Shown here: one piece after another, positions 11,201-54,572 of the stretch
How the letters are laid out: each line of letters opens with the position of its first letter
Position numbering within the stretch: the first letter of the stretch is position 1
Source: Clostridia bacterium
GTDB lineage: Bacteria; Bacillota; Clostridia; UMGS1883
DNA length: 64,000 bases
Assembly: GCA_017440585.1 (NCBI GenBank)
Contig: JAFSGW010000098.1
Location: 5,640-69,639, forward strand
Reading direction: 5' to 3'
Made by a program: the position numbers and the translations under genes
The notes under the pieces: generated by a model
Databases searched by the model: none
What the model was told of the DNA's origin: nothing
The model's input: only the letters and a program-made list of their open reading frames with translations

Positions 11201-12100
11201 ATGAATAACTTCAAATCAGGCTTTATAACAATCATAGGCAGACCCAATGTTGGTAAATCCACCCTTTTAAACGCCCTCACAGGTGAAAAAATTGCAATTG
11301 TTTCCAATAAGCCACAGACAACACGTAACAAGGTTTTAACCATTTTAACAGACGACGACAGCCAGATAATTTTTGTGGACACACCCGGTGTACATGCCCC
11401 CAGAACAAAGCTCGGGGAATATATGAACCGTGTTGTGACAGACTCTATCGACGGCGTTGATGCGGTGCTTTTTGTAACAGAGGCAACAAGCAAGCTTCAG
11501 AACAACGAAAAGGAAATTTTAGAGGGTCTTTTTTCTAAAAAAATACCCGTTATACTTATTATAAACAAGGCAGATGCAGTAAAGAACAAGGAGGACATGC
11601 TCTCTGTTATACAGGATGCAACCGCTGTTGGTGAATTTGCCGCTATCGTGCCCATTTCCGCCCTTAAAAAGGACGGTGTTAAGGCTGTTCTGGAGGAAAT
11701 AAAGAAGCTTTTGCCACTTGGTCCCATGTACTACCCCGACGACATGATAACAGACCAGACAGAGCGTGAAATTGTTTCGGAAATTATCCGTGAAAAAATG
11801 CTCCGCCTTCTTGACAAGGAGGTTCCCCACGGCACAGCCGTTGAGATCGAGTACATGAAGGAGGGCGACACCTTAACAAAAATAGGTGCCGTTATCTACT
11901 GCGAAAAGGCAAGCCATAAAGGCATTATTATCGGCAAGGGCGGTGAAATGTTAAAGCGTATCGGCTCCTATTCCCGTACAGACATTGAAAAGCTTTTAGA
12001 CAAAAAGGTGTTTCTGGAATTATGGGTAAAGGTAAAGGAAGACTGGCGAAACTCCAACTTCCTTTTGAAGGAATTTGGCTATCAGGAACCCGAGGAATGA
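11201..12100 (+). CDS. era: GTPase Era
   Basis: 299 aa. It has G1 GRPNVGKST, G3 DTPG and G4 NKAD, plus a C-terminal KH domain (GKGGEMLKRIG). Confidence 0.96.
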   Translation: MNNFKSGFITIIGRPNVGKSTLLNALTGEKIAIVSNKPQTTRNKVLTILTDDDSQIIFVDTPGVHAPRTKLGEYMNRVVTDSIDGVDAVLFVTEATSKLQNNEKEILEGLFSKKIPVILIINKADAVKNKEDMLSVIQDATAVGEFAAIVPISALKKDGVKAVLEEIKKLLPLGPMYYPDDMITDQTEREIVSEIIREKMLRLLDKEVPHGTAVEIEYMKEGDTLTKIGAVIYCEKASHKGIIIGKGGEMLKRIGSYSRTDIEKLLDKKVFLELWVKVKEDWRNSNFLLKEFGYQEPEE

Positions 12101-16117: not shown

Positions 16118-17289
16118 AACTTACATATAACCACACCCTTTACGCCTGCTTTTTAGGCTACATAACCCAGGCGGTGGTAAATAATTTTGCACCTCTGCTT
16201 TTTGTAATTTTCCACGAAGAGCTCAATATTCCCCTTTCCCAGATAACGCTTTTAGTTACAATAAACTTTCTTGTACAGCTTTTTGTAGACTTTATTTCCC
16301 CTTTCTTTGTGGACAAAATAGGCTACAAAAAAAGTATTATAATCGCCCACGTGTTTGCATCGGCGGGCTTGATAATGCTTGGTGTTCTCCCCACCTTAAG
16401 CCATAATGCCTTCCCCATGCTTCTTTTGGCGGTAATTACCTATGCAGTAGGCGGTGGCATTATCGAGGTATTAATAAGCCCTATTGCAGAAGCTTGTCCA
16501 ACTGATAACAAATCAGCTGTAATGAGCCTGCTCCACTCCTTCTATTGTTGGGGCACCATAGGCGTTGTTCTTATTTCAACTGTTTTCATTGCCCTTCTGG
16601 GCAAGGGGTCATGGCAGGTTTTAGCATGCATATGGGCTCTTCTTCCTGCCCTTAACGCAGTTTTCTTTCACCTTGTACCCGTTAACCACCTTACGGAGGA
16701 AAACGGTGCAATGGGCGTTAAAGAGCTTTTTACAAGCAAAGCTTTTATAATTTTTATTTTTCTGATGATAAGTGCAGGTGCAAGTGAGCAGGCAATGAGC
16801 CAGTGGGCATCCTTCTTTGTGGAAAGTGCCCTCCATGTTCCCAAAATGATAGGTGACATAACGGGCGTTTGCCTTTTCTCACTTATGATGGGGCTTGCAA
16901 GGGTTGGCCACTCCCGCTTCGGTGACAGGCTCAATTTAAGAACCTGCCTTATTTTAAGCGGAAGCTTAAGCATAATATCCTACATAACGGTAGCCTTAAG
17001 CCCATGGAGCTTTCTTTCCCTTATCGGCTGTGCCTTCTGTGGTTTAGCAGCAGGCGTACTCTGGCCCGGTGTGTTTTCAATGGCGGCAGAGCACTTCCCC
17101 AAGGGTGGCACCTTAATGTTTGCCTACCTTGCCTTAGCAGGCGACTTAGGCTGCAGTGCAGGGCCCACCTTAACGGGCTTTGTGTCCTCGGCATTTAACG
17201 ACAACTTAAACACGGGCCTTTTTGCCGCAATCATATTCCCCATAATTTTAATATTATCCGCATTATCATTAAAAAAGAGTCAGTCCTGA
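16114..17289 (+). CDS. MFS transporter
   Basis: 391 aa with about 12 TM segments and a 4-nt overlap with the acetyltransferase gene. Confidence 0.82.
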   Translation: MKLTYNHTLYACFLGYITQAVVNNFAPLLFVIFHEELNIPLSQITLLVTINFLVQLFVDFISPFFVDKIGYKKSIIIAHVFASAGLIMLGVLPTLSHNAFPMLLLAVITYAVGGGIIEVLISPIAEACPTDNKSAVMSLLHSFYCWGTIGVVLISTVFIALLGKGSWQVLACIWALLPALNAVFFHLVPVNHLTEENGAMGVKELFTSKAFIIFIFLMISAGASEQAMSQWASFFVESALHVPKMIGDITGVCLFSLMMGLARVGHSRFGDRLNLRTCLILSGSLSIISYITVALSPWSFLSLIGCAFCGLAAGVLWPGVFSMAAEHFPKGGTLMFAYLALAGDLGCSAGPTLTGFVSSAFNDNLNTGLFAAIIFPIILILSALSLKKSQS

Positions 17290-17303
17290 AAGACTGACTC
17301 TTT
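17271..17303. terminator. Bidirectional terminator hairpin (better T-tract for the minus strand)
   Basis: AAAAAA, then the stem AGAGTCAGTC / GACTGACTCT with loop CTGAAA, then TTT. It overlaps the MFS stop codon. Confidence 0.7.
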
Positions 17304-17310
17304 ACTTATT

Positions 17311-17421
17311 TATCTCACGTTTTGCAAAGCAAAACATATCGCGCCGTAAGGCATATCGCATTTGCGGAGCAAATATATCGCATGGCAATGCCATATATCA
17401 CGTGATGCATTTATGCATCAC
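17311..17421. repeat. Mini-hairpin array 1: five different short hairpins separated by a conserved 7-nt word (ATATCGC x3, ATATCAC, TATCTCAC)
   Basis: The plus strand reads TATCTCAC [GTTTTGC-AAA-GCAAAAC] ATATCGC [GCC-GTAA-GGC] ATATCGC [ATTTGC-GGA-GCAAAT] ATATCGC [ATGGC-AAT-GCCAT] ATATCAC [GTGATGCAT-TT-ATGCATCAC]. The last hairpin overlaps the degV stop codon. Confidence 0.75.
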
Positions 17422-37627: not shown

Positions 37628-37879
37628 ATGAGAAAATTTACAGTACATGATCTTGACTTACAGGGTTTCATCCAGGAGCTTAGTAACTGCACAGGCAACG
37701 TATGGATGACAACAGAAGATGGCGATAAGATTAATCTTCAGTCTGCATTCTGCCGTCTTATCGGTCTCAAGAGCATTCTTGAAGGCGGTAAGCTCAGCCA
37801 GGCTACTATTGAATGTGATAATATCGAAGATGAATCCCGTCTTTTCAGATTTAACCTTTACGGTAAGAGTGAAAACTAA
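37628..37879 (+). CDS. Small hypothetical protein (weak HPr-like resemblance)
   Basis: 83 aa with the RBS GAGGAGG upstream and its own promoter and terminator. The segment GDKINLQSAFCRLIGLKSILEGGKLSQATIECDNIEDE loosely recalls the HPr core, but the active-site GxHARPA motif is absent. Confidence 0.5.
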   Translation: MRKFTVHDLDLQGFIQELSNCTGNVWMTTEDGDKINLQSAFCRLIGLKSILEGGKLSQATIECDNIEDESRLFRFNLYGKSEN

Positions 37880-37887
37880 ATAAAATC

Positions 37888-37919
37888 AAAAATCGCACCG
37901 AATTCGGTGCGATTTTTTT
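37888..37919 (+). terminator. Rho-independent terminator
   Basis: Stem ATCGCACCG / CGGTGCGAT with loop AATT, followed by TTTTTTT. Confidence 0.85.
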
Positions 37920-37942: not shown

Positions 37943-37975
37943 AAAAAAGAACGCAACTATCCGTTGCGTTCTTTC
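37943..37975 (-). terminator. Rho-independent terminator for the minus-strand SLH gene (downstream of mini-hairpin array 2)
   Basis: Stem AGAACGCAAC / GTTGCGTTCT. The minus strand continues with TTTTTT. Confidence 0.7.
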
Positions 37976-37981
37976 CTTAAC

Positions 37982-38069
37982 TCGCCATCAGGCGAATTTC
38001 ATATGCGTAAGCATATTTCACCGCGAATCGATTTCACAAATCCTCGGGATTGATTTCATTGATTGAAAT
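37982..38069. repeat. Mini-hairpin array 2: short hairpins separated by the conserved 7-nt word ATTTCAT/ATTTCAC
   Basis: The plus strand reads [TCGCC-ATCA-GGCGA] ATTTCAT [ATGC-GTAA-GCAT] ATTTCAC [CGCGAATCG] ATTTCAC [AATCC-TCG-GGATT] G ATTTCAT TGAT TGAAAT. The array starts 9 nt below the stop codon of the SLH gene at 38078. Confidence 0.7.
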
Positions 38070-38077
38070 AATATTTA

Positions 38078-39382
38078 TTATTCCAATCCAAACGCTGCAT
38101 TAAGTGCACTGTGAATCATAACCGCACATTCTGCTCTTGTTGCAGGAAGCGTGGGTTCAAACTTGTTATTCACAGTATCTCTCACAGTTGCAATGCCGTG
38201 AGAAGCAAGCACATTTACTGCTTCAACGTCCCATACGGGGATAGCGGAAGAGTCAGCAAAAACAATTGTTGCGTTGTCCTTCGCCTTGAACTCAGAATTC
38301 ATAGACTTAATGTATCTGTAAACGATAAGGCAAAGATCTGCACGGGTAATGTTTGAAGCGGGGTCAAAAATTGTTTCGCTTCTGCCCTTTATAAAGCCAA
38401 ACTTTAATGCTGCCGATACAAAGGGGTATTCCCAGCTTGCCGCGGGCACATCCCAGAAGAGGCTTGTATAGGTTGCCTTGTCCTTTTCAGCGTATCTGCC
38501 GGAGGCAAGCACAATCATCTTTGCAAATTCAGCTCTTGTAACGGGGTTGTTGGGCTTAAAGGTTTTGTCGGGGTAGCCGTTTATAACGCCCATGTCAACA
38601 AGGGCATAAATAGCCTTTTCTGCCCAGGGAGCCTGGTTTATATCGGAGAAGGTTTTATCAGAGGGTCTTGTGGGAGCCTCTGTTCCCATCTCAACCGTTA
38701 CATCCTCATAATCATCCTCAAAGCCACCGGGGCCACCTGTGTCGGGACGGGTGGGCTTTTCTGTAGGTTCGTCCTTTTCATTTTCTGTGGGAGGAGCTGT
38801 TTCCGCCTCGGTAGGAGCCTCTGTTTCGCCCTCAGTGGGTTCTTCTTTTTCACCCTCTGTGGGAGGAGCTGTAGGCTCATCAGTTGTAGTTTCTTCCTCT
38901 TCTGTTGTAGTTTCCTCTTCCTCGGTTGTTGTTTCTTCCTCTTCCTGACCGTTACCGAAAAGCATAAGCTTTATTGTTTCAACAAGAGGCTCAAATTCGG
39001 GGCTTATAATGCCGTCCATACCGTCAACAACAGCACCGGGGAATGCACCAACAAGGGCATCTCTCACGTCTGTGTTTTTCTTGAGGTTGGTTGCATAAAG
39101 CACAGCATCCATCATGTAGTCCTCAAAATTGTCCTCTGTAATCACATCACCCTGACTGAGCAGGTAAGACTGCATAGACTCAAGGAAAGAAATAATCTGT
39201 CTGTCGGAAACCCTTTGAGGCTGAGCCTTCAGTTCTTCAACAAAATCGGGGTACATGGAGGCACATTCGTAATATGCATCTTCAACATCTAAATTTATAC
39301 CTGCCATTGCAACAGGCATTGTTGTCATCATAACGGCAGCAACCGTTAAAAGGGCAACTATCTTCTTCACTAAAGTTTTCAT
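38078..39382 (-). CDS. SLH-domain cell-surface protein with an acidic E/T/P-rich linker
   Basis: It has a signal peptide (MKTLVKKIVALLTVAAVMMTTMPVAMA) and the linker EEEETTTEEEETTTEEEETTTDEPTAPPTEGEKEEPTEGE. C-terminal SLH repeats follow (FSDINQAPWAEKAIYALVDMGVINGYPDKTFKPNNPVTRAEFA...). I chose the start at 39382 for its RBS. Confidence 0.85.
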   Translation of the reverse strand: MKTLVKKIVALLTVAAVMMTTMPVAMAGINLDVEDAYYECASMYPDFVEELKAQPQRVSDRQIISFLESMQSYLLSQGDVITEDNFEDYMMDAVLYATNLKKNTDVRDALVGAFPGAVVDGMDGIISPEFEPLVETIKLMLFGNGQEEEETTTEEEETTTEEEETTTDEPTAPPTEGEKEEPTEGETEAPTEAETAPPTENEKDEPTEKPTRPDTGGPGGFEDDYEDVTVEMGTEAPTRPSDKTFSDINQAPWAEKAIYALVDMGVINGYPDKTFKPNNPVTRAEFAKMIVLASGRYAEKDKATYTSLFWDVPAASWEYPFVSAALKFGFIKGRSETIFDPASNITRADLCLIVYRYIKSMNSEFKAKDNATIVFADSSAIPVWDVEAVNVLASHGIATVRDTVNNKFEPTLPATRAECAVMIHSALNAAFGLE

Positions 39383-39447
39383 GGTATAATTGTTTCCTTT
39401 CATCGGATAAAAGTATCCGTATATTTCCACACATATAAAACAATCTC

Positions 39448-39475
39448 AAAAGGTTGCAGCAAGCTGCAACCTTTT
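39448..39475. terminator. Terminator after the large SLH gene
   Basis: Palindrome AAAAGGTTGCAGC-AA-GCTGCAACCTTTT. Confidence 0.75.
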
Positions 39476-39497
39476 GATTTATACCTTAATTATGATA

Positions 39498-42400
39498 TTA
39501 TTCAACAATTTCGGGCCAAGCTCTTGCAAGGAGTACGCAAGCTTCAGCTCTTGTTGTGTTCTTGAGAGGCTTGTAGGAGCCGTCTTCATAACCTGTGATA
39601 AGACCGTTAGCTACAGCGGCATCCATTTCGCCGTCGAACCACCAGGAGATATCTTCAGCGTCTGTGAATACGTCCTTAGCACCTTCCTTGGCTTCTGTCC
39701 ATACAGCACTCTTAGCTCTTGCAATGATTGCAACTGCCTGTTCACGAGTAATCAGGTCGTTAGGACCGAAGTTGCCGTCACCGTAACCACGGAGCATTCC
39801 GTAGCCTTCGGGAAGAGACATTGTTGCAATAATGTCTTCTGCCCAGTGACCTACTGTATCGTCATAAAGAACGCCGTCTTCAGCCTTTTCAAGACCAAGA
39901 ATTCTGTAAACAATTGCGGAGAATTCAGCTCTTGTAATGTTCTGGTCGGGCTTGAATGTGCCGTCTTCGTAACCCTTGATGTAACCATTGATTGTCATCT
40001 GGTCGATTGTTTCATGTGCCCAGTGAGCTGCCTTTGTACCTGTTGCAGCAATATCGGGCCACTGACAAACGTGAGGCTTAACTACATCATCTGTGGGCTC
40101 TGTGGGTTCTTCCTTGTCGGAAACGCTGATGCCGCCGGACTTCTTCTTAACTGTTACGTTAACTGTAACTGTTGCACTTGTAGCAACACCGTCAACATAA
40201 AGTGTACCTGTGATAACAACGCCGCTACCTACTGTGATACCCTTAATCTGAAGGATATTGTTGTAGTCGCCGCCTACCTGAACAAGCTCAACTTCACCTT
40301 CAGCGTTTGTAATTGTCCAAACTACTTCAGCCGTGGAGCCTTCAGGAATGTTCTGAGGTGTTGTTGTGATATCAATCTTGCTGCCCTTCTTTACAGTTCT
40401 GTCAGCTACGCCGTCACCGTCTGTATCGCCTGCAAGGCTGAGTGTGGGTTCAAGAACGGGTTCTGCAAGAATTGTGAAGTCGTCTGTATCATAAGCGAGT
40501 TCTGTACCAACTGTTACTGTGTATACATCACCTGCTGCTGCACCATCGGGAACATTAAGTGTGATACCTGCTTCAAATTCAGCCTTTGTATATACAAGTA
40601 CATAAACCTTTTCTTCGCCCTTAACGATAGAAACTGTTACATGGTCAAGGTTTGTTGTACCCTTGATTGTGATTGTGCCGTCAGCTTCAACGTCTGCGAT
40701 ATCTTCAAGAACTACTTCGTAATCTGTAGTATCTGCAAGAATTGTGAAGCTCTTTGTATCGGAAGCGAGCTCTGTACCAACGATTACATCGTATACATCG
40801 CCTGCTGCTGCACCATCGGGAACATTAAGTGTGATACCTGCTTCAAGCTCTTCCTTAGAGTATACAACTGCGTAGATTGTTTCTTCACCGTCACGGATAA
40901 CCACTGTTACATAGTCAAGGTTTGTTGTACCCTTAACTGTGATTGTGCCGTCAGCTTCAACGTCTGCGATATCTTCAAGAACTACTTCGTAATCTGTAGT
41001 ATCTGCAAGAATTGTGAAGCTCTTTGTATCGGAAGCGAGTTCTGTACCAACAATTACTTCGTATACATCGCCAACCTCTGCACCATCGGGAGCAGGAATG
41101 GAAATACCTTCTTCAAGTTCTTCCTTAGAGTATACAACTGCGTAGATTGTTTCTTCGCCGTCACGGATAACTACTGTTACATAGTCAAGGTTTGTTGTAC
41201 CCTTAACAGTGATGATACCGTCTGCTGTTACATCAGCAATGTCATCAAGAACTACCTCGTATTCTGCTGCATCTGCAAGAATTGTGAAGCTCTTTGTATC
41301 GTAAGCTGCTTCTGTACCAACAACTACTTCGTATACATCGCCAACCTCTGCACCATCGGGAGCAGGAATGGAAATGCCTTCTTCAAGCTCTTCCTTGGAG
41401 TATACAACTGCGTAGATTGTTTCTTCGCCATCACGGATAACTACTGTTACATAGTCAAGGTTTGTTGTACCCTTAACTGTGATGATACCGTCTGCTGTTA
41501 CGTCAGCGATATCTTCAAGAACTACTTCGTAGTCTACTGCTTCGCTTTCAGCTGTTACTGTGAAGGAAGTTACATATCTGTAAACGTCTTCAGCATATTC
41601 ATCGAAGGAGTAACCACGGTAAACTGCAACTACTGCTTCACCGTCAGCTTCGTCTGTTACGTCGATGTAGAGCATACCGATGGGGCTGTCGTCAGTGCCG
41701 GAGTTAACCACGAAACCGTCTGCATCGTAGTTGGCATCGAACTGAGCAAGGCTTGTACCGAGCTCGTTGAGCTTTGCGATGGAGGGGTAACGGTCATGTG
41801 CAAAGCCAAGTGTGAGCTCTGTCACTTCGTCACCGTTTATTGCAGCACCGCCAAGTCTTGTCCATTCTTCGCCATCCTTGTAGCGGAGAAGCTCTCTGCC
41901 CATGTAAACGTTCATCTGAACAAGCTCAAGACCGTGATTTTCATCAATTGTATCCATTGCTGTGAAAAGAGCCTCAACTACTGTGCCGATAGCAGCTACT
42001 GCATCAACATCGTATGCATCGCTGACAGCCTGTATAGCATCTGCACAGAAAGGCTGAGAAGCAATGTATTCTGCAACAGCCTTCATTGTTTCATACATGG
42101 ATGTGATTGTTCTTTCGTTGTCACCGCTCATAACGCCTGTGCCGTTTGCACCTGCAACTGCAGCGATGAGCTCTTCCTTGTTAAGAGCCATAAACTCACT
42201 TCTGAGTGTGGGAACAAGGTCGATAGCATATCTTACGAAATCTTCACCAAGAATAAGGAAAGCAGCCTTCACGTCACGGTCAGCAATCATATCGAAAAGA
42301 CCTGTGGAGTTGCCTTCATTAAGCTGGTTTGTAGCAAGCTGCATACCAAGGTCAAATGCATTGAACATGCCGTCTGCGGCAAGCTCAACAACGTCTTCCT

Positions 42401-43031
42401 TAAGTGCTTCTGCAAAACCGTCAGGATAAGCTTCGCCTGCTTCTTCTGCAAGATAAGCATCAACATAAAGAGCTACCTTGTCAGCATTTTCGCCTGCAAG
42501 TACGCCACTTTCTTCAATAAGAGCAAGCTCACCGAAGAATACTGTAAGGTCATCAGCGTAATCGCCAAGACCGTTAAGAGCTGCCATAGGAGCAGACACA
42601 CTGATAGCTTCGTCGTTAGCTTCTTCAAAAGCTGTGAAGCTGTCAAGCCATGCTGTATAGGAAGCATCTTCACTTGTAACATCAAGGTTTTCTTCCATGA
42701 TGTCTCTCATAAGCTTCCACTTATAAAGATCCTTCATTGTTTCATTTGTAAGAACCTTCTCTGTTACGAAACCATCTGCCAGAGCTACTGCCTGTGCCTT
42801 TATAGCATCCTTATTAGCTTCGTAGGATGCCCATACAGAGTCAATAACTGCTGTCTGTTCTTCTGTCATGGAGCCAAACTGATTTGCCTGCCAGTCCCAG
42901 ATTCTGTCTCTGTACAATTCAACCATGTTGTCCATTCTTCCGAAGAGCTCTGCTTCATCAGCTGCGAAAACAGAAACCACGGAAAAACACATTACGATTG
43001 CGAGTACAAGACTCAAAATGCGTTTTTTCAT
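39498..43031 (-). CDS. Large SLH-anchored surface protein with four 90-aa tandem repeats and a Big_2-like domain
   Basis: About 1177 aa from the ATG at 43031 (RBS AAGGAAGG). It has a signal peptide, a helical N-terminal region and 4 near-identical 90-aa repeats (DYEVVLEDIADV.ADG.ITVKGTTNLDYVTVVIRDGEETIYAVVYSKEELE...). An Ig-like segment and C-terminal SLH repeats follow (HWAHETIDQMTINGYIKGYEDGTFKPDQNITRAEFS...). Confidence 0.87.
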   Translation of the reverse strand: MKKRILSLVLAIVMCFSVVSVFAADEAELFGRMDNMVELYRDRIWDWQANQFGSMTEEQTAVIDSVWASYEANKDAIKAQAVALADGFVTEKVLTNETMKDLYKWKLMRDIMEENLDVTSEDASYTAWLDSFTAFEEANDEAISVSAPMAALNGLGDYADDLTVFFGELALIEESGVLAGENADKVALYVDAYLAEEAGEAYPDGFAEALKEDVVELAADGMFNAFDLGMQLATNQLNEGNSTGLFDMIADRDVKAAFLILGEDFVRYAIDLVPTLRSEFMALNKEELIAAVAGANGTGVMSGDNERTITSMYETMKAVAEYIASQPFCADAIQAVSDAYDVDAVAAIGTVVEALFTAMDTIDENHGLELVQMNVYMGRELLRYKDGEEWTRLGGAAINGDEVTELTLGFAHDRYPSIAKLNELGTSLAQFDANYDADGFVVNSGTDDSPIGMLYIDVTDEADGEAVVAVYRGYSFDEYAEDVYRYVTSFTVTAESEAVDYEVVLEDIADVTADGIITVKGTTNLDYVTVVIRDGEETIYAVVYSKEELEEGISIPAPDGAEVGDVYEVVVGTEAAYDTKSFTILADAAEYEVVLDDIADVTADGIITVKGTTNLDYVTVVIRDGEETIYAVVYSKEELEEGISIPAPDGAEVGDVYEVIVGTELASDTKSFTILADTTDYEVVLEDIADVEADGTITVKGTTNLDYVTVVIRDGEETIYAVVYSKEELEAGITLNVPDGAAAGDVYDVIVGTELASDTKSFTILADTTDYEVVLEDIADVEADGTITIKGTTNLDHVTVSIVKGEEKVYVLVYTKAEFEAGITLNVPDGAAAGDVYTVTVGTELAYDTDDFTILAEPVLEPTLSLAGDTDGDGVADRTVKKGSKIDITTTPQNIPEGSTAEVVWTITNAEGEVELVQVGGDYNNILQIKGITVGSGVVITGTLYVDGVATSATVTVNVTVKKKSGGISVSDKEEPTEPTDDVVKPHVCQWPDIAATGTKAAHWAHETIDQMTINGYIKGYEDGTFKPDQNITRAEFSAIVYRILGLEKAEDGVLYDDTVGHWAEDIIATMSLPEGYGMLRGYGDGNFGPNDLITREQAVAIIARAKSAVWTEAKEGAKDVFTDAEDISWWFDGEMDAAVANGLITGYEDGSYKPLKNTTRAEACVLLARAWPEIVE
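40468..41547 (-). repeat. Four tandem 270-bp coding repeats
   Basis: The marker GCAAGAATTGTGAAG recurs at 40466, 40736, 41006 and 41276, an exact 270-bp period. Neighbouring units are identical at most positions by eye. Confidence 0.9.
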
Positions 43032-43277
43032 AAACTGCACCTTCCTTTATTTAAACTAAAATTAAATACAACAACGTATATTTATCGACACTACCCGATA
43101 ATACACATTACCATTGTAACACAACCTATTCTCCATTTCAAGTATTTTATTCAATTTTTTTGAACTTTCTGTGCCTAAATTTGTGCAATTCATGACATTT
43201 TTTTCAATTTGATATTGTTTTTTTCTTATCTGTTTATTATAATATAAACTATATATTTTCGGAAAGGTTTTGATCAC

Positions 43278-54496: not shown

Positions 54497-54572
54497 TCCT
54501 CTATAGCTCAGTCGGTAGAGCGCATGACTGTTAATCATGATGTCGTTGGTTCAAGTCCAACTGGAGGAGCCA
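54497..54572 (+). tRNA. tRNA-Asn (anticodon GTT), CCA encoded
   Basis: 76 nt. The acceptor stem TCCTCTA pairs with TGGAGGA (one G-T pair). It has a D-arm AGCTCAGTCGGTAGAGC, an anticodon loop CTGTTAA, a T-arm GGTTCAAGTCC and a terminal GCCA. Confidence 0.93.

Follow-up and report, generated by a model that had tools for sequence, protein, structure and literature searches.

A Gut-1 hairpin array in the 3' region of an SLH-protein gene, and the two-part element of gut Clostridia to which Gut-1 belongs

Directly downstream of a gene for an SLH-domain surface protein, the window (i.e. the whole stretch of 64,000 nucleotides that was analysed) contains short repeated words which alternate with small palindromes. 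The locus raises the question of whether this arrangement represents a real family of elements, which family this would be, and whether it acts as RNA or as DNA. On the plus strand, the array reads TCGCC-ATCA-GGCGA, ATTTCAT, ATGC-GTAA-GCAT, ATTTCAC and CGCGAATCG, followed by ATTTCAC, aAATCC-TCG-GGATTg and ATTTCAT-TGAT-TGAAAT. An initial annotation had placed four words alternating with palindromes at 37982-38069, and every one of these features is found there; the TGAAAT with which the last word pairs is present at 38064-38069, and so are the minus-strand stop codon just before the array (TAA, 38080-38078) and, after it, a terminator hairpin with T-run (37943-37975).

A series of four or more identical 6-mers, 12-32 nt apart, is found once in the window, compared with a mean of 0.02 in Markov shuffles, and the only other intergenic array of this kind in the window is array 1 (17336-17401). 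The region also folds better than shuffled sequence (z = -5.4 for 151 nt including the terminator). Over the whole window the pattern RYGAWAT is found 107 times versus 65 expected; this excess is mostly an effect of composition, and the evidence lies in the clustering of the words, not in the excess.

The array behind the SLH gene is a copy of Gut-1

The Rfam model of the Gut-1 motif (RF01706) matches 37991-38061 on the minus strand with 51.9 bits (E = 2.3e-7 for the whole window), and the match spans the full model (1-77). With hairpins 1 and 2 shorter than in the consensus and a mutation in hairpin 2, the gathering score of 50 bits is exceeded by only a small margin. The consensus itself, CAaUGAAAU-hairpin-GUGAAAU-hairpin-GUGAAAU-hairpin-UGAAAU, is exactly the grammar that the initial annotation had read from the array: the four UGAAAU words and three hairpins with variable stems that define Gut-1 are all present, and hairpin 1 of the window (cAAUCC-CGA-GGAUUu) is homologous to the first hairpin of Gut-1 (AAAUCC...GGAUUU). 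The window array is a copy of Gut-1, and the real element family proposed in the initial annotation thus already has a name. Gut-1 was described in 2010 from 43 human-gut metagenome fragments and rated as a certain RNA, non-coding and not cis-regulatory; the one further statement made on it was that it occurs in gut samples only (Weinberg et al. 2010, Genome Biol 11:R31). In Rfam, its assigned type is sRNA gene. Beyond Weinberg 2010, the searchable literature yielded no later work on Gut-1, RF01706 or its words.

The initial annotation had also joined the words of arrays 1 and 2 (the latter being the array behind the SLH gene) in the common pattern RYGAWAT. This generalisation holds for the published family: the Weinberg seed alignment contains the variants GUGAUAU and GCGAU beside GUGAAAU. 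Array 1 comprises three GCGAUAU words, one GUGAUAU word and five hairpins, carries the mini-hairpin motif GCGGAGC at 17364, and is flanked by the stop codon of a DegV gene (17418) and a terminator (about 17263-17303). Its Gut-1 score of 24.4 bits is below the 50-bit threshold; it is a divergent relative inside the Gut-1 family. AUAU-word and AAAU-word types thereby coexist in one genome, whereas the 797 kb of sequence from loci seeded with the AAAU type yielded no array of the AUAU type. Both window arrays are Gut-1-family elements in 3' UTRs, and do not constitute a new class. The weak third hairpin, on account of which a coincidental resemblance between them had been considered, is a stem defect specific to the window.

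Table 1. Coordinates of the SLH gene, the parts of its array and array 1 in the window
Feature	Coordinates	Strand	Evidence or remark
SLH-domain surface protein gene	38078..39382	-	Pfam SLH E = 1.8e-32; translation; ribosome-binding site; orthologues
Hairpin 0 AUUUCA-AUCA-AUGAAAU	38053..38069	-	sequence; predicted in RNA and DNA folds
Hairpin 1 cAAUCC-CGA-GGAUUu	38038..38052	-	family-conserved first hairpin AAAUCC...GGAUUU
Word 2 GUGAAAU	38031..38037	-	sequence; Rfam model alignment
Hairpin 2 CGAUUCGCG	38022..38030	-	one substitution weakens stem
Word 3 GUGAAAU	38015..38021	-	sequence; Rfam model alignment
Hairpin 3 AUGC-UUAC-GCAU	38003..38014	-	plus strand GCGTAAGC = GCGNNAGC mini-hairpin motif
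Word 4 AUGAAAU	37996..38002	-	sequence; Rfam model alignment
Hairpin 4 UCGCC-UGAU-GGCGA	37982..37995	-	sequence; fold
GUUAAGG tail motif	37975..37981	-	common to other forward-only Gut-1 copies and to the centre of some two-part copies
SLH transcript intrinsic terminator GAACGCAAC-GGAUA-GUUGCGUUC then UUUUUU	37943..37975	-	homologous in L121, L325, L123
Word ATTTCAT	37996-38002	+	
Word ATTTCAC	38015-38021	+	
Word ATTTCAC	38031-38037	+	
Word ATTTCAT	38053-38059	+	
Palindrome TCGCC/GGCGA	37982-37995	+	
Palindrome ATGC-GTAA-GCAT	38003-38014	+	
Palindrome CGCGAATCG	38022-38030	+	weak
Palindrome AATCC-TCG-GGATT	38039-38051	+	
Array 1, GYGAUAU-word copy	17320..17420	-	between DegV gene stop codon and terminator; Gut-1 24.4 bits

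With the SLH gene's stop codon before it and the intrinsic terminator behind it, the array must, judging from this arrangement, be transcribed within the 3' UTR of the SLH mRNA; a promoter scan found no promoter on the array's strand. A reading of the array as a series of terminators was rejected, as its hairpins run into RUGAAAU words and not into U-runs. The sole terminator call on the plus strand, at 37982, corresponds to hairpin 4 followed by ATTTCAT, and the true terminator is separate from it. Word 1 (AUGAAAU, 38053-38059) is held in hairpin 0, where it pairs with a reverse-complement word (TGAAAT on the plus strand).

Concerning the gene itself, the likely start is the ATG at 39382 (MKTLVKK...), which gives a signal peptide; for the relative P0001, the gene caller chose the ATG at 39403. 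An exact-protein look-up returned no identical protein for the SLH protein of the window, and homologues were used instead. On the other side of the array, a plus-strand ORF of 83 aa (37628-37879) has no Pfam match and is conserved as an 87-aa gene in relatives. Between this ORF and the SLH terminator lies a bidirectional terminator with a perfect A-run/hairpin/T-run (37888-37917), so that the convergent gene pair has two terminators in series. Upstream of the SLH gene, two very long ORFs overlap on opposite strands (39474-43163, plus; 39498-43040, minus). The minus-strand ORF encodes an SLH protein of 1180 aa that is syntenic in relatives; its plus-strand counterpart, for which there is no Pfam match, is probably a shadow ORF.

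Distribution, architecture and genomic context of the Gut-1 family

In a collection with one genome per species, a search pattern built on the first hairpin (GAAATNAATCC N3-8 GGATT N0-2 GTGAAAT) was found at no fewer than 119 genome loci, i.e. at least 119. The family counts given below rest on 124 elements from the matches listed (loci L206-L324). The forward halves of the pattern-defined members that were tested score 56-80 bits with the Rfam model, all as Gut-1, and the pattern-defined set is for this reason equated with Gut-1. All but two of 80 matches listed are gut MAGs under Clostridia-type labels (Clostridia, Eubacteriales, Oscillospiraceae, Acutalibacteraceae, Ruminococcus/Ruminococcaceae, Faecousia, Christensenella, Fimenecus, Congzhengia); the exceptions are one Lachnospiraceae MAG and one Bacteroidales MAG. 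The hosts sampled for the matches listed include humans, ruminants, deer and horses. Within Oscillospiraceae, Acutalibacteraceae and Ruminococcaceae, Gut-1 is widespread among gut MAGs from many animals. Two other searches yielded little: broad three-word patterns in viral contigs gave about 20 real matches out of 95-120, the rest being mostly chance hits or tandem repeats, and a metagenome scan with the GTTAAGG tail gave 5 real matches out of 120.

The motif known from Rfam makes up one arm of an intergenic, REP-like element built as an array of hairpins, which gut Clostridia (Oscillospiraceae, Acutalibacteraceae and relatives) carry in dispersed copies. The grammar of this element is a single-stranded 7-nt word, R-Y-G-A-W-A-U, alternating with short hairpins of differing stems. 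In 66 of the 124 elements, four forward words are followed on the same strand by four or five reverse-complement words (ATTTCAC); 30 are forward-only. The two-part element is about 187 nt long and aligns well (alignment A2, 62 sequences). Its forward half consists of TTTTTTCA, A(C/T)GAAAT, hairpin 1, GTGAAAT, hairpin 2, GTGAAAT, hairpin 3, GTGAAAT and hairpin 4; then come GTGAGGGGATTTATTTCATTTCAC and three further hairpins with ATTTCAC behind each. The reverse half represents a weaker Gut-1 on the opposite strand (51 bits in L203). Furthermore, word 1 and the 5' strand of hairpin 1 can form a long-range helix with the centre. In 70 of 75 copies this helix is AAATCC/GGATTT; the variants are TTGCCC/GGGCAA (L359), CCACCC/GGGTGG (L018) and AAATCCGTCC/GGACGGATTT (L333, L346), and Weinberg's sequences of the GUGAUAU type have AUAUUCGCC/GGCGAAUAU. 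Across these five sequence variants, the helix covaries. No such closure was found in the reverse half (0 matches), and the two-part element is in this respect polar. The 5' strand of hairpin 1 can engage either in the local hairpin or in the long-range helix, the two being mutually exclusive (seen in L209, L246, L166, L128 and others). RNAalifold predicts pairs between the forward and the reverse words, but the words are nearly invariant, and L128 and L197 carry an uncompensated ATATCAC. A further observation concerns hairpin 7 in the reverse half (L077, L128, L166, L073), where a tandem G-A/A-G mismatch recurs inside an otherwise Watson-Crick stem (..cGAgc-NNN-gcGAg.., on the printed strand).

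The window copy has neither the reverse words nor the centre (GGGGATTTATTTCATTTCAC) of the two-part element. It is of the forward-only type, in which hairpin 0 with word 1 and hairpins 1-4 with the words between them are followed by GTTAAGG (GUUAAGG in the transcript) and a terminator. The same tail recurs with different stems at unrelated loci (L252, L288, L229, L259, L340, L402), which indicates that the forward-only type is recurrent and no one-off truncation.

Regarding the genomic context, a complete same-strand tRNA gene lies no more than 150 nt upstream of the start of 59 of the 124 elements (48%), with fifteen tRNA types represented, and in none of the 124 copies was a tRNA found on the reverse side. 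In relation to the transcription unit that precedes it, the element is therefore polar. A hairpin almost always directly precedes the element, often as an A-run/T-run terminator ending in ...TTTTTCA. Many two-part copies lie behind a terminator and show no conserved promoter; about half of them have a co-directional gene downstream, so that they may be barely transcribed. The order of stop codon, array and terminator, put forward as a common positional logic for the two window arrays, applies to both of them and in all to seven of nine forward-only copies, which lie directly behind a co-oriented ORF. It is not a rule of the family, in which most copies are two-part elements placed after a tRNA gene and its terminator. 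The window's own tRNA gene (54497-54569) has a terminator behind it and no Gut-1 element.

Downstream of the element, 97 loci have unrelated housekeeping genes as neighbours, with no enrichment of an integrase, a DNA enzyme or any other partner family. Gut-1 copies were also noticed in IMG/VR contigs, several of them beside a tRNA 3' fragment; in L056, L077, L128, L166 and L197, only the 3' part of the tRNA (T arm, acceptor strand, CCA) and a terminator precede the element. These fragments look like the att-site duplication at a prophage border. A role as integrase arm sites or attP was rejected given that integrases are not enriched downstream in the 97 loci, and the tRNA fragments are probably host DNA that flanks prophages. 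In L224 (about 1226-1660), L246 (5474-6003) and L175 (744-1025), tandem duplications comprise whole elements, or forward halves with the T-run hairpin before them, which suggests that this hairpin is included in the copied unit. A simple MITE with long terminal inverted repeats was dismissed, as the stems differ between the two halves.

Conservation of the array, its stems and its loops

At the orthologous SLH loci, the order of a large SLH gene, the SLH gene, the 87-aa ORF and PFL is kept. The number of words, which the initial annotation had suggested comparing between strains, indeed varies. Like the window locus, L121 and L325 have four words (protein identity to the window 99% and 76%); L123 (68%) has two words and a fused remnant, and no array is present in L122 (75%), L326 (72%), L327 (69%) and L328 (64%). 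In L122 the array was lost, since its protein is 86% identical to that of L325, where the array is present. Judged from these loci, the element appears to be dispensable, having been lost or eroded in sister lineages. Between the window and L325, identity is 76.9% in the coding sequence and rises to 85.8% from the stop codon to the terminator. Hairpin 2 is weak through a point change peculiar to the window: L121 and L325 have CGCGAAGCG, a perfect stem, the hairpin of the relatives being CGCUUCGCG with GCGAAGC on the plus strand. In L123, a public call of a 51-aa gene (11332-11487) covers the eroded Gut-1 array; this gene call is almost certainly spurious.

Compensatory changes in the stems are frequent across the 124 relatives; at one pair, for example, GC occurs 14 times, AT 12 times and CG 10 times. 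The stems are under selection, and the paired state is kept by compensatory change. The array stems are about 99% Watson-Crick, with 15 GT versus 14 AC in about 1700 pairs. The adjacent terminator hairpins have 33 GT versus 15 AC and RNA-type UUCG and GAAA loops.

The loops are asymmetric between strands, with TNC/TNNC on the GTGAAAT strand and GNA/GNNA on the ATTTCAC strand. Triloops outnumber every other loop class, and about 87% of hairpins are closed by a C-G pair. Among 319 distinct hairpins, C-GNA-G or C-GNNA-G is present in 187 on the ATTTCAC strand versus 6 on the other, and the full motif GCGNAGC or GCGNNAGC in 67 versus 0. The window array contains this motif on its plus strand (GCGTAAGC, 38005-38012). 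Mini-hairpin DNA is defined by C-G-closed GNA/GNNA loops in which any N is allowed (PMC13037366), and the RNA versions are much less stable (PMC13037366; PMC3201870). In sequence, the loop signature of Gut-1 corresponds to this published definition. The initial annotation had remarked that the GTAA loop in both arrays would be a GNRA-type tetraloop if the plus strand were the RNA. GNA/GNNA loops on the ATTTCAC strand are indeed found family-wide, but the tetraloops show no preference for GNRA (29 versus 29 GNYA), which fits DNA mini-hairpins at least as well as RNA tetraloops. Taken together, neither the counts of wobble pairs nor those of loops favour RNA over DNA. Predicted folding energies discriminate neither strand nor molecule, and gene strand confounds the GC skew of the window, which is weak.

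Possible roles and comparison with known systems

REP/BIME sequences of enterobacteria protect mRNA 3' ends and bind gyrase, and they provide the functional model used here. By analogy with them, we favour, if only tentatively, a REP-like module at the 3' end of the transcript that would protect and insulate it and whose words would bind a putative factor. Five consecutive hairpins and the terminator would give the SLH transcript a compact, structured 3' end, which could resist 3'-to-5' exonucleases and could insulate the SLH gene from convergent transcription; the four exposed RUGAAAU words would serve as multivalent sites for the factor. Binding to the words could be the reason why words rather than stems are conserved. 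In favour of this reading are the place of the array between stop codon and terminator, the polarity towards the preceding transcription unit, as expected of a 3'-end element acting in RNA, the covariation of the stems and of the long-range helix, and the high identity to L325 behind the stop codon. Several observations count against such a 3'-end role: two of the nine forward-only copies (L288, L340) are found 5' of an upstream gene that is transcribed divergently, close relatives lost the array without obvious replacement, many two-part copies are downstream of a terminator without a conserved promoter, the array stems contain almost no G-U pairs, unlike the adjacent terminators, and the favourable GNA/GNNA loops sit on the strand that is absent from the SLH mRNA. 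This last point leads to a serious rival, possible though somewhat unlikely in our estimation, in which the ATTTCAC strand, as single-stranded or extruded DNA, would fold into arrays of very stable d(C-GNA-G) and d(GCGNNAGC) mini-hairpins separated by ATTTCAC words, the mRNA copy being a by-product. Candidate readers would be primase in ssi-type priming, a HUH/RAYT-like transposase, gyrase, or a hairpin-promoter RNA polymerase. The strand-specific loop signature speaks for this DNA-level explanation, as do the motif at 38005 in the window and GCGAAGC in its relatives, the dominance of C-G-closed triloops, the missing GNRA preference, the lower stability of the RNA versions, stems without the G-U excess of the adjoining terminators, and the many promoterless copies behind terminators. 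However, the strand with the mini-hairpins serves in forward-only copies as template for the upstream gene and, going by the weak GC skew, probably as leading-strand template too, neither of which is expected to be exposed as single-stranded DNA. Moreover, no gene for a DNA enzyme was found adjoining the elements, the polarity relative to the upstream transcription unit is explained equally well by RNA, and the motif has been rated as a certain RNA (Weinberg et al. 2010). Taken further, Gut-1 might be no RNA gene at all: in gut Oscillospirales, it would then be a chromosomal DNA-structure element that marks where tRNA and other transcription units end, a possibility that we regard as unlikely. 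If it were true, the copies would be sites of priming or fork handling or recognition sites of a HUH-type enzyme, and Gut-1 would be a Firmicute counterpart of REP/BIME with a conserved word and free stems.

Two further explanations concern what a transcribed or decaying copy might be. A selfish repeat without function here, i.e. a truncated remnant of a two-part element kept by drift or by hitch-hiking with the terminator, seems improbable to us. The absence of the array from four orthologous loci and its fused remnant in L123 agree with decay, and so do the stem-breaking mutation in hairpin 2 of the window and the tandem duplications elsewhere (L224, L246, L175). Yet the array is better conserved than the coding sequence in the comparison with L325, the stems are maintained by compensatory changes, and the tail of GTTAAGG and terminator recurs at unrelated loci. 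Very improbable, in our judgement, is a trans-acting sRNA, either stand-alone or derived from the 3' UTR, whose words would act as seeds or as a protein sponge in the manner of CsrB/RsmZ or of multi-seed sRNAs. Gut-1 has been classed as a non-coding RNA and not as cis-regulatory (Weinberg 2010), its exposed motifs repeated between hairpins resemble sponge RNAs, and array and terminator together would yield a stable 3' fragment. On the other hand, word 1 is preceded by a variable hairpin or terminator and not by a conserved promoter, the promoter scan was empty on the array's strand, the copies are dispersed, variable and different in unit number, and word types AAAU and AUAU occur in one genome.

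Among known systems, a CRISPR array or the repeats of a type III toxin-antitoxin system (ToxI-like) would show identical repeats, 20 nt or longer, that are separated by unique spacers or accompanied by an adjacent toxin gene. Both were rejected: the unit is only 7 nt, the spacers are palindromic and the neighbours are unrelated housekeeping genes. The word bears what we take to be a resemblance to a parS/Noc-binding half-site (GTGAAAC, GGGAAAT), of which the required palindrome is never formed; followed by AAT, it presumably resembles an extended -10 promoter element, a combination that does not occur in the window copy. Protein-sponge RNAs (CsrB/RsmY/RsmZ) likewise use hairpins as a scaffold that displays a short motif many times. 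Their motif, GGA, is placed in the hairpin loops, whereas the Gut-1 word is placed between hairpins; unlike Gut-1, they have their own promoters and are not dispersed in dozens of copies. To our knowledge, no primase or vRNAP connection exists for Gut-1 arrays. The mini-hairpin DNAs GCGNAGC/GCGNNAGC (Hirao; PMC13037366) share with Gut-1 the C-G closing pair and the GNA/GNNA loops on one strand only; they act in the G4 and ssiA priming origins and in the hairpin promoters of the phage N4 virion RNA polymerase (PMC13037366). These are single hairpins in phage or plasmid origins and promoters, whereas Gut-1 forms chromosomal arrays of 4-8 with a conserved word between the hairpins.

The likeness to REP/BIME, and also to BOX, RUP and Correia-type repeats, consists in dispersed intergenic hairpins at the 3' ends of transcription units, in clusters of opposed orientation, and in a copy number that varies between relatives. 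REP stems are conserved in sequence and contain the GTAG recognised by RAYT, whereas Gut-1 has variable stems, a conserved 7-nt word and no GTAG. The likeness to REP/BIME is confined to function. As far as the searchable literature goes, the two-part architecture, the tRNA linkage, the long-range helix, the host range and the DNA-type loop signature of Gut-1 are undescribed. With respect to the window, the result is an annotation: both of its mini-hairpin arrays belong to the Gut-1 family and are of a known kind. The window copy shares with the described motif the four (R)UGAAAU words between three variable hairpins and the origin from gut-associated uncultured bacteria; it differs in being a 3'-UTR segment with its own terminator, whereas Rfam lists an sRNA gene from human gut metagenomes. 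Gut-1 has been an orphan since 2010, with neither host nor context, and is now placed in named lineages. The strand-specific loop signature raises the question of RNA versus DNA, and the function of Gut-1 is now testable. Compared with the Rfam model, which covers the first half only, the complete element is a larger and polar two-part structure, often linked to tRNAs and tied to the ends of tRNA genes and coding genes.
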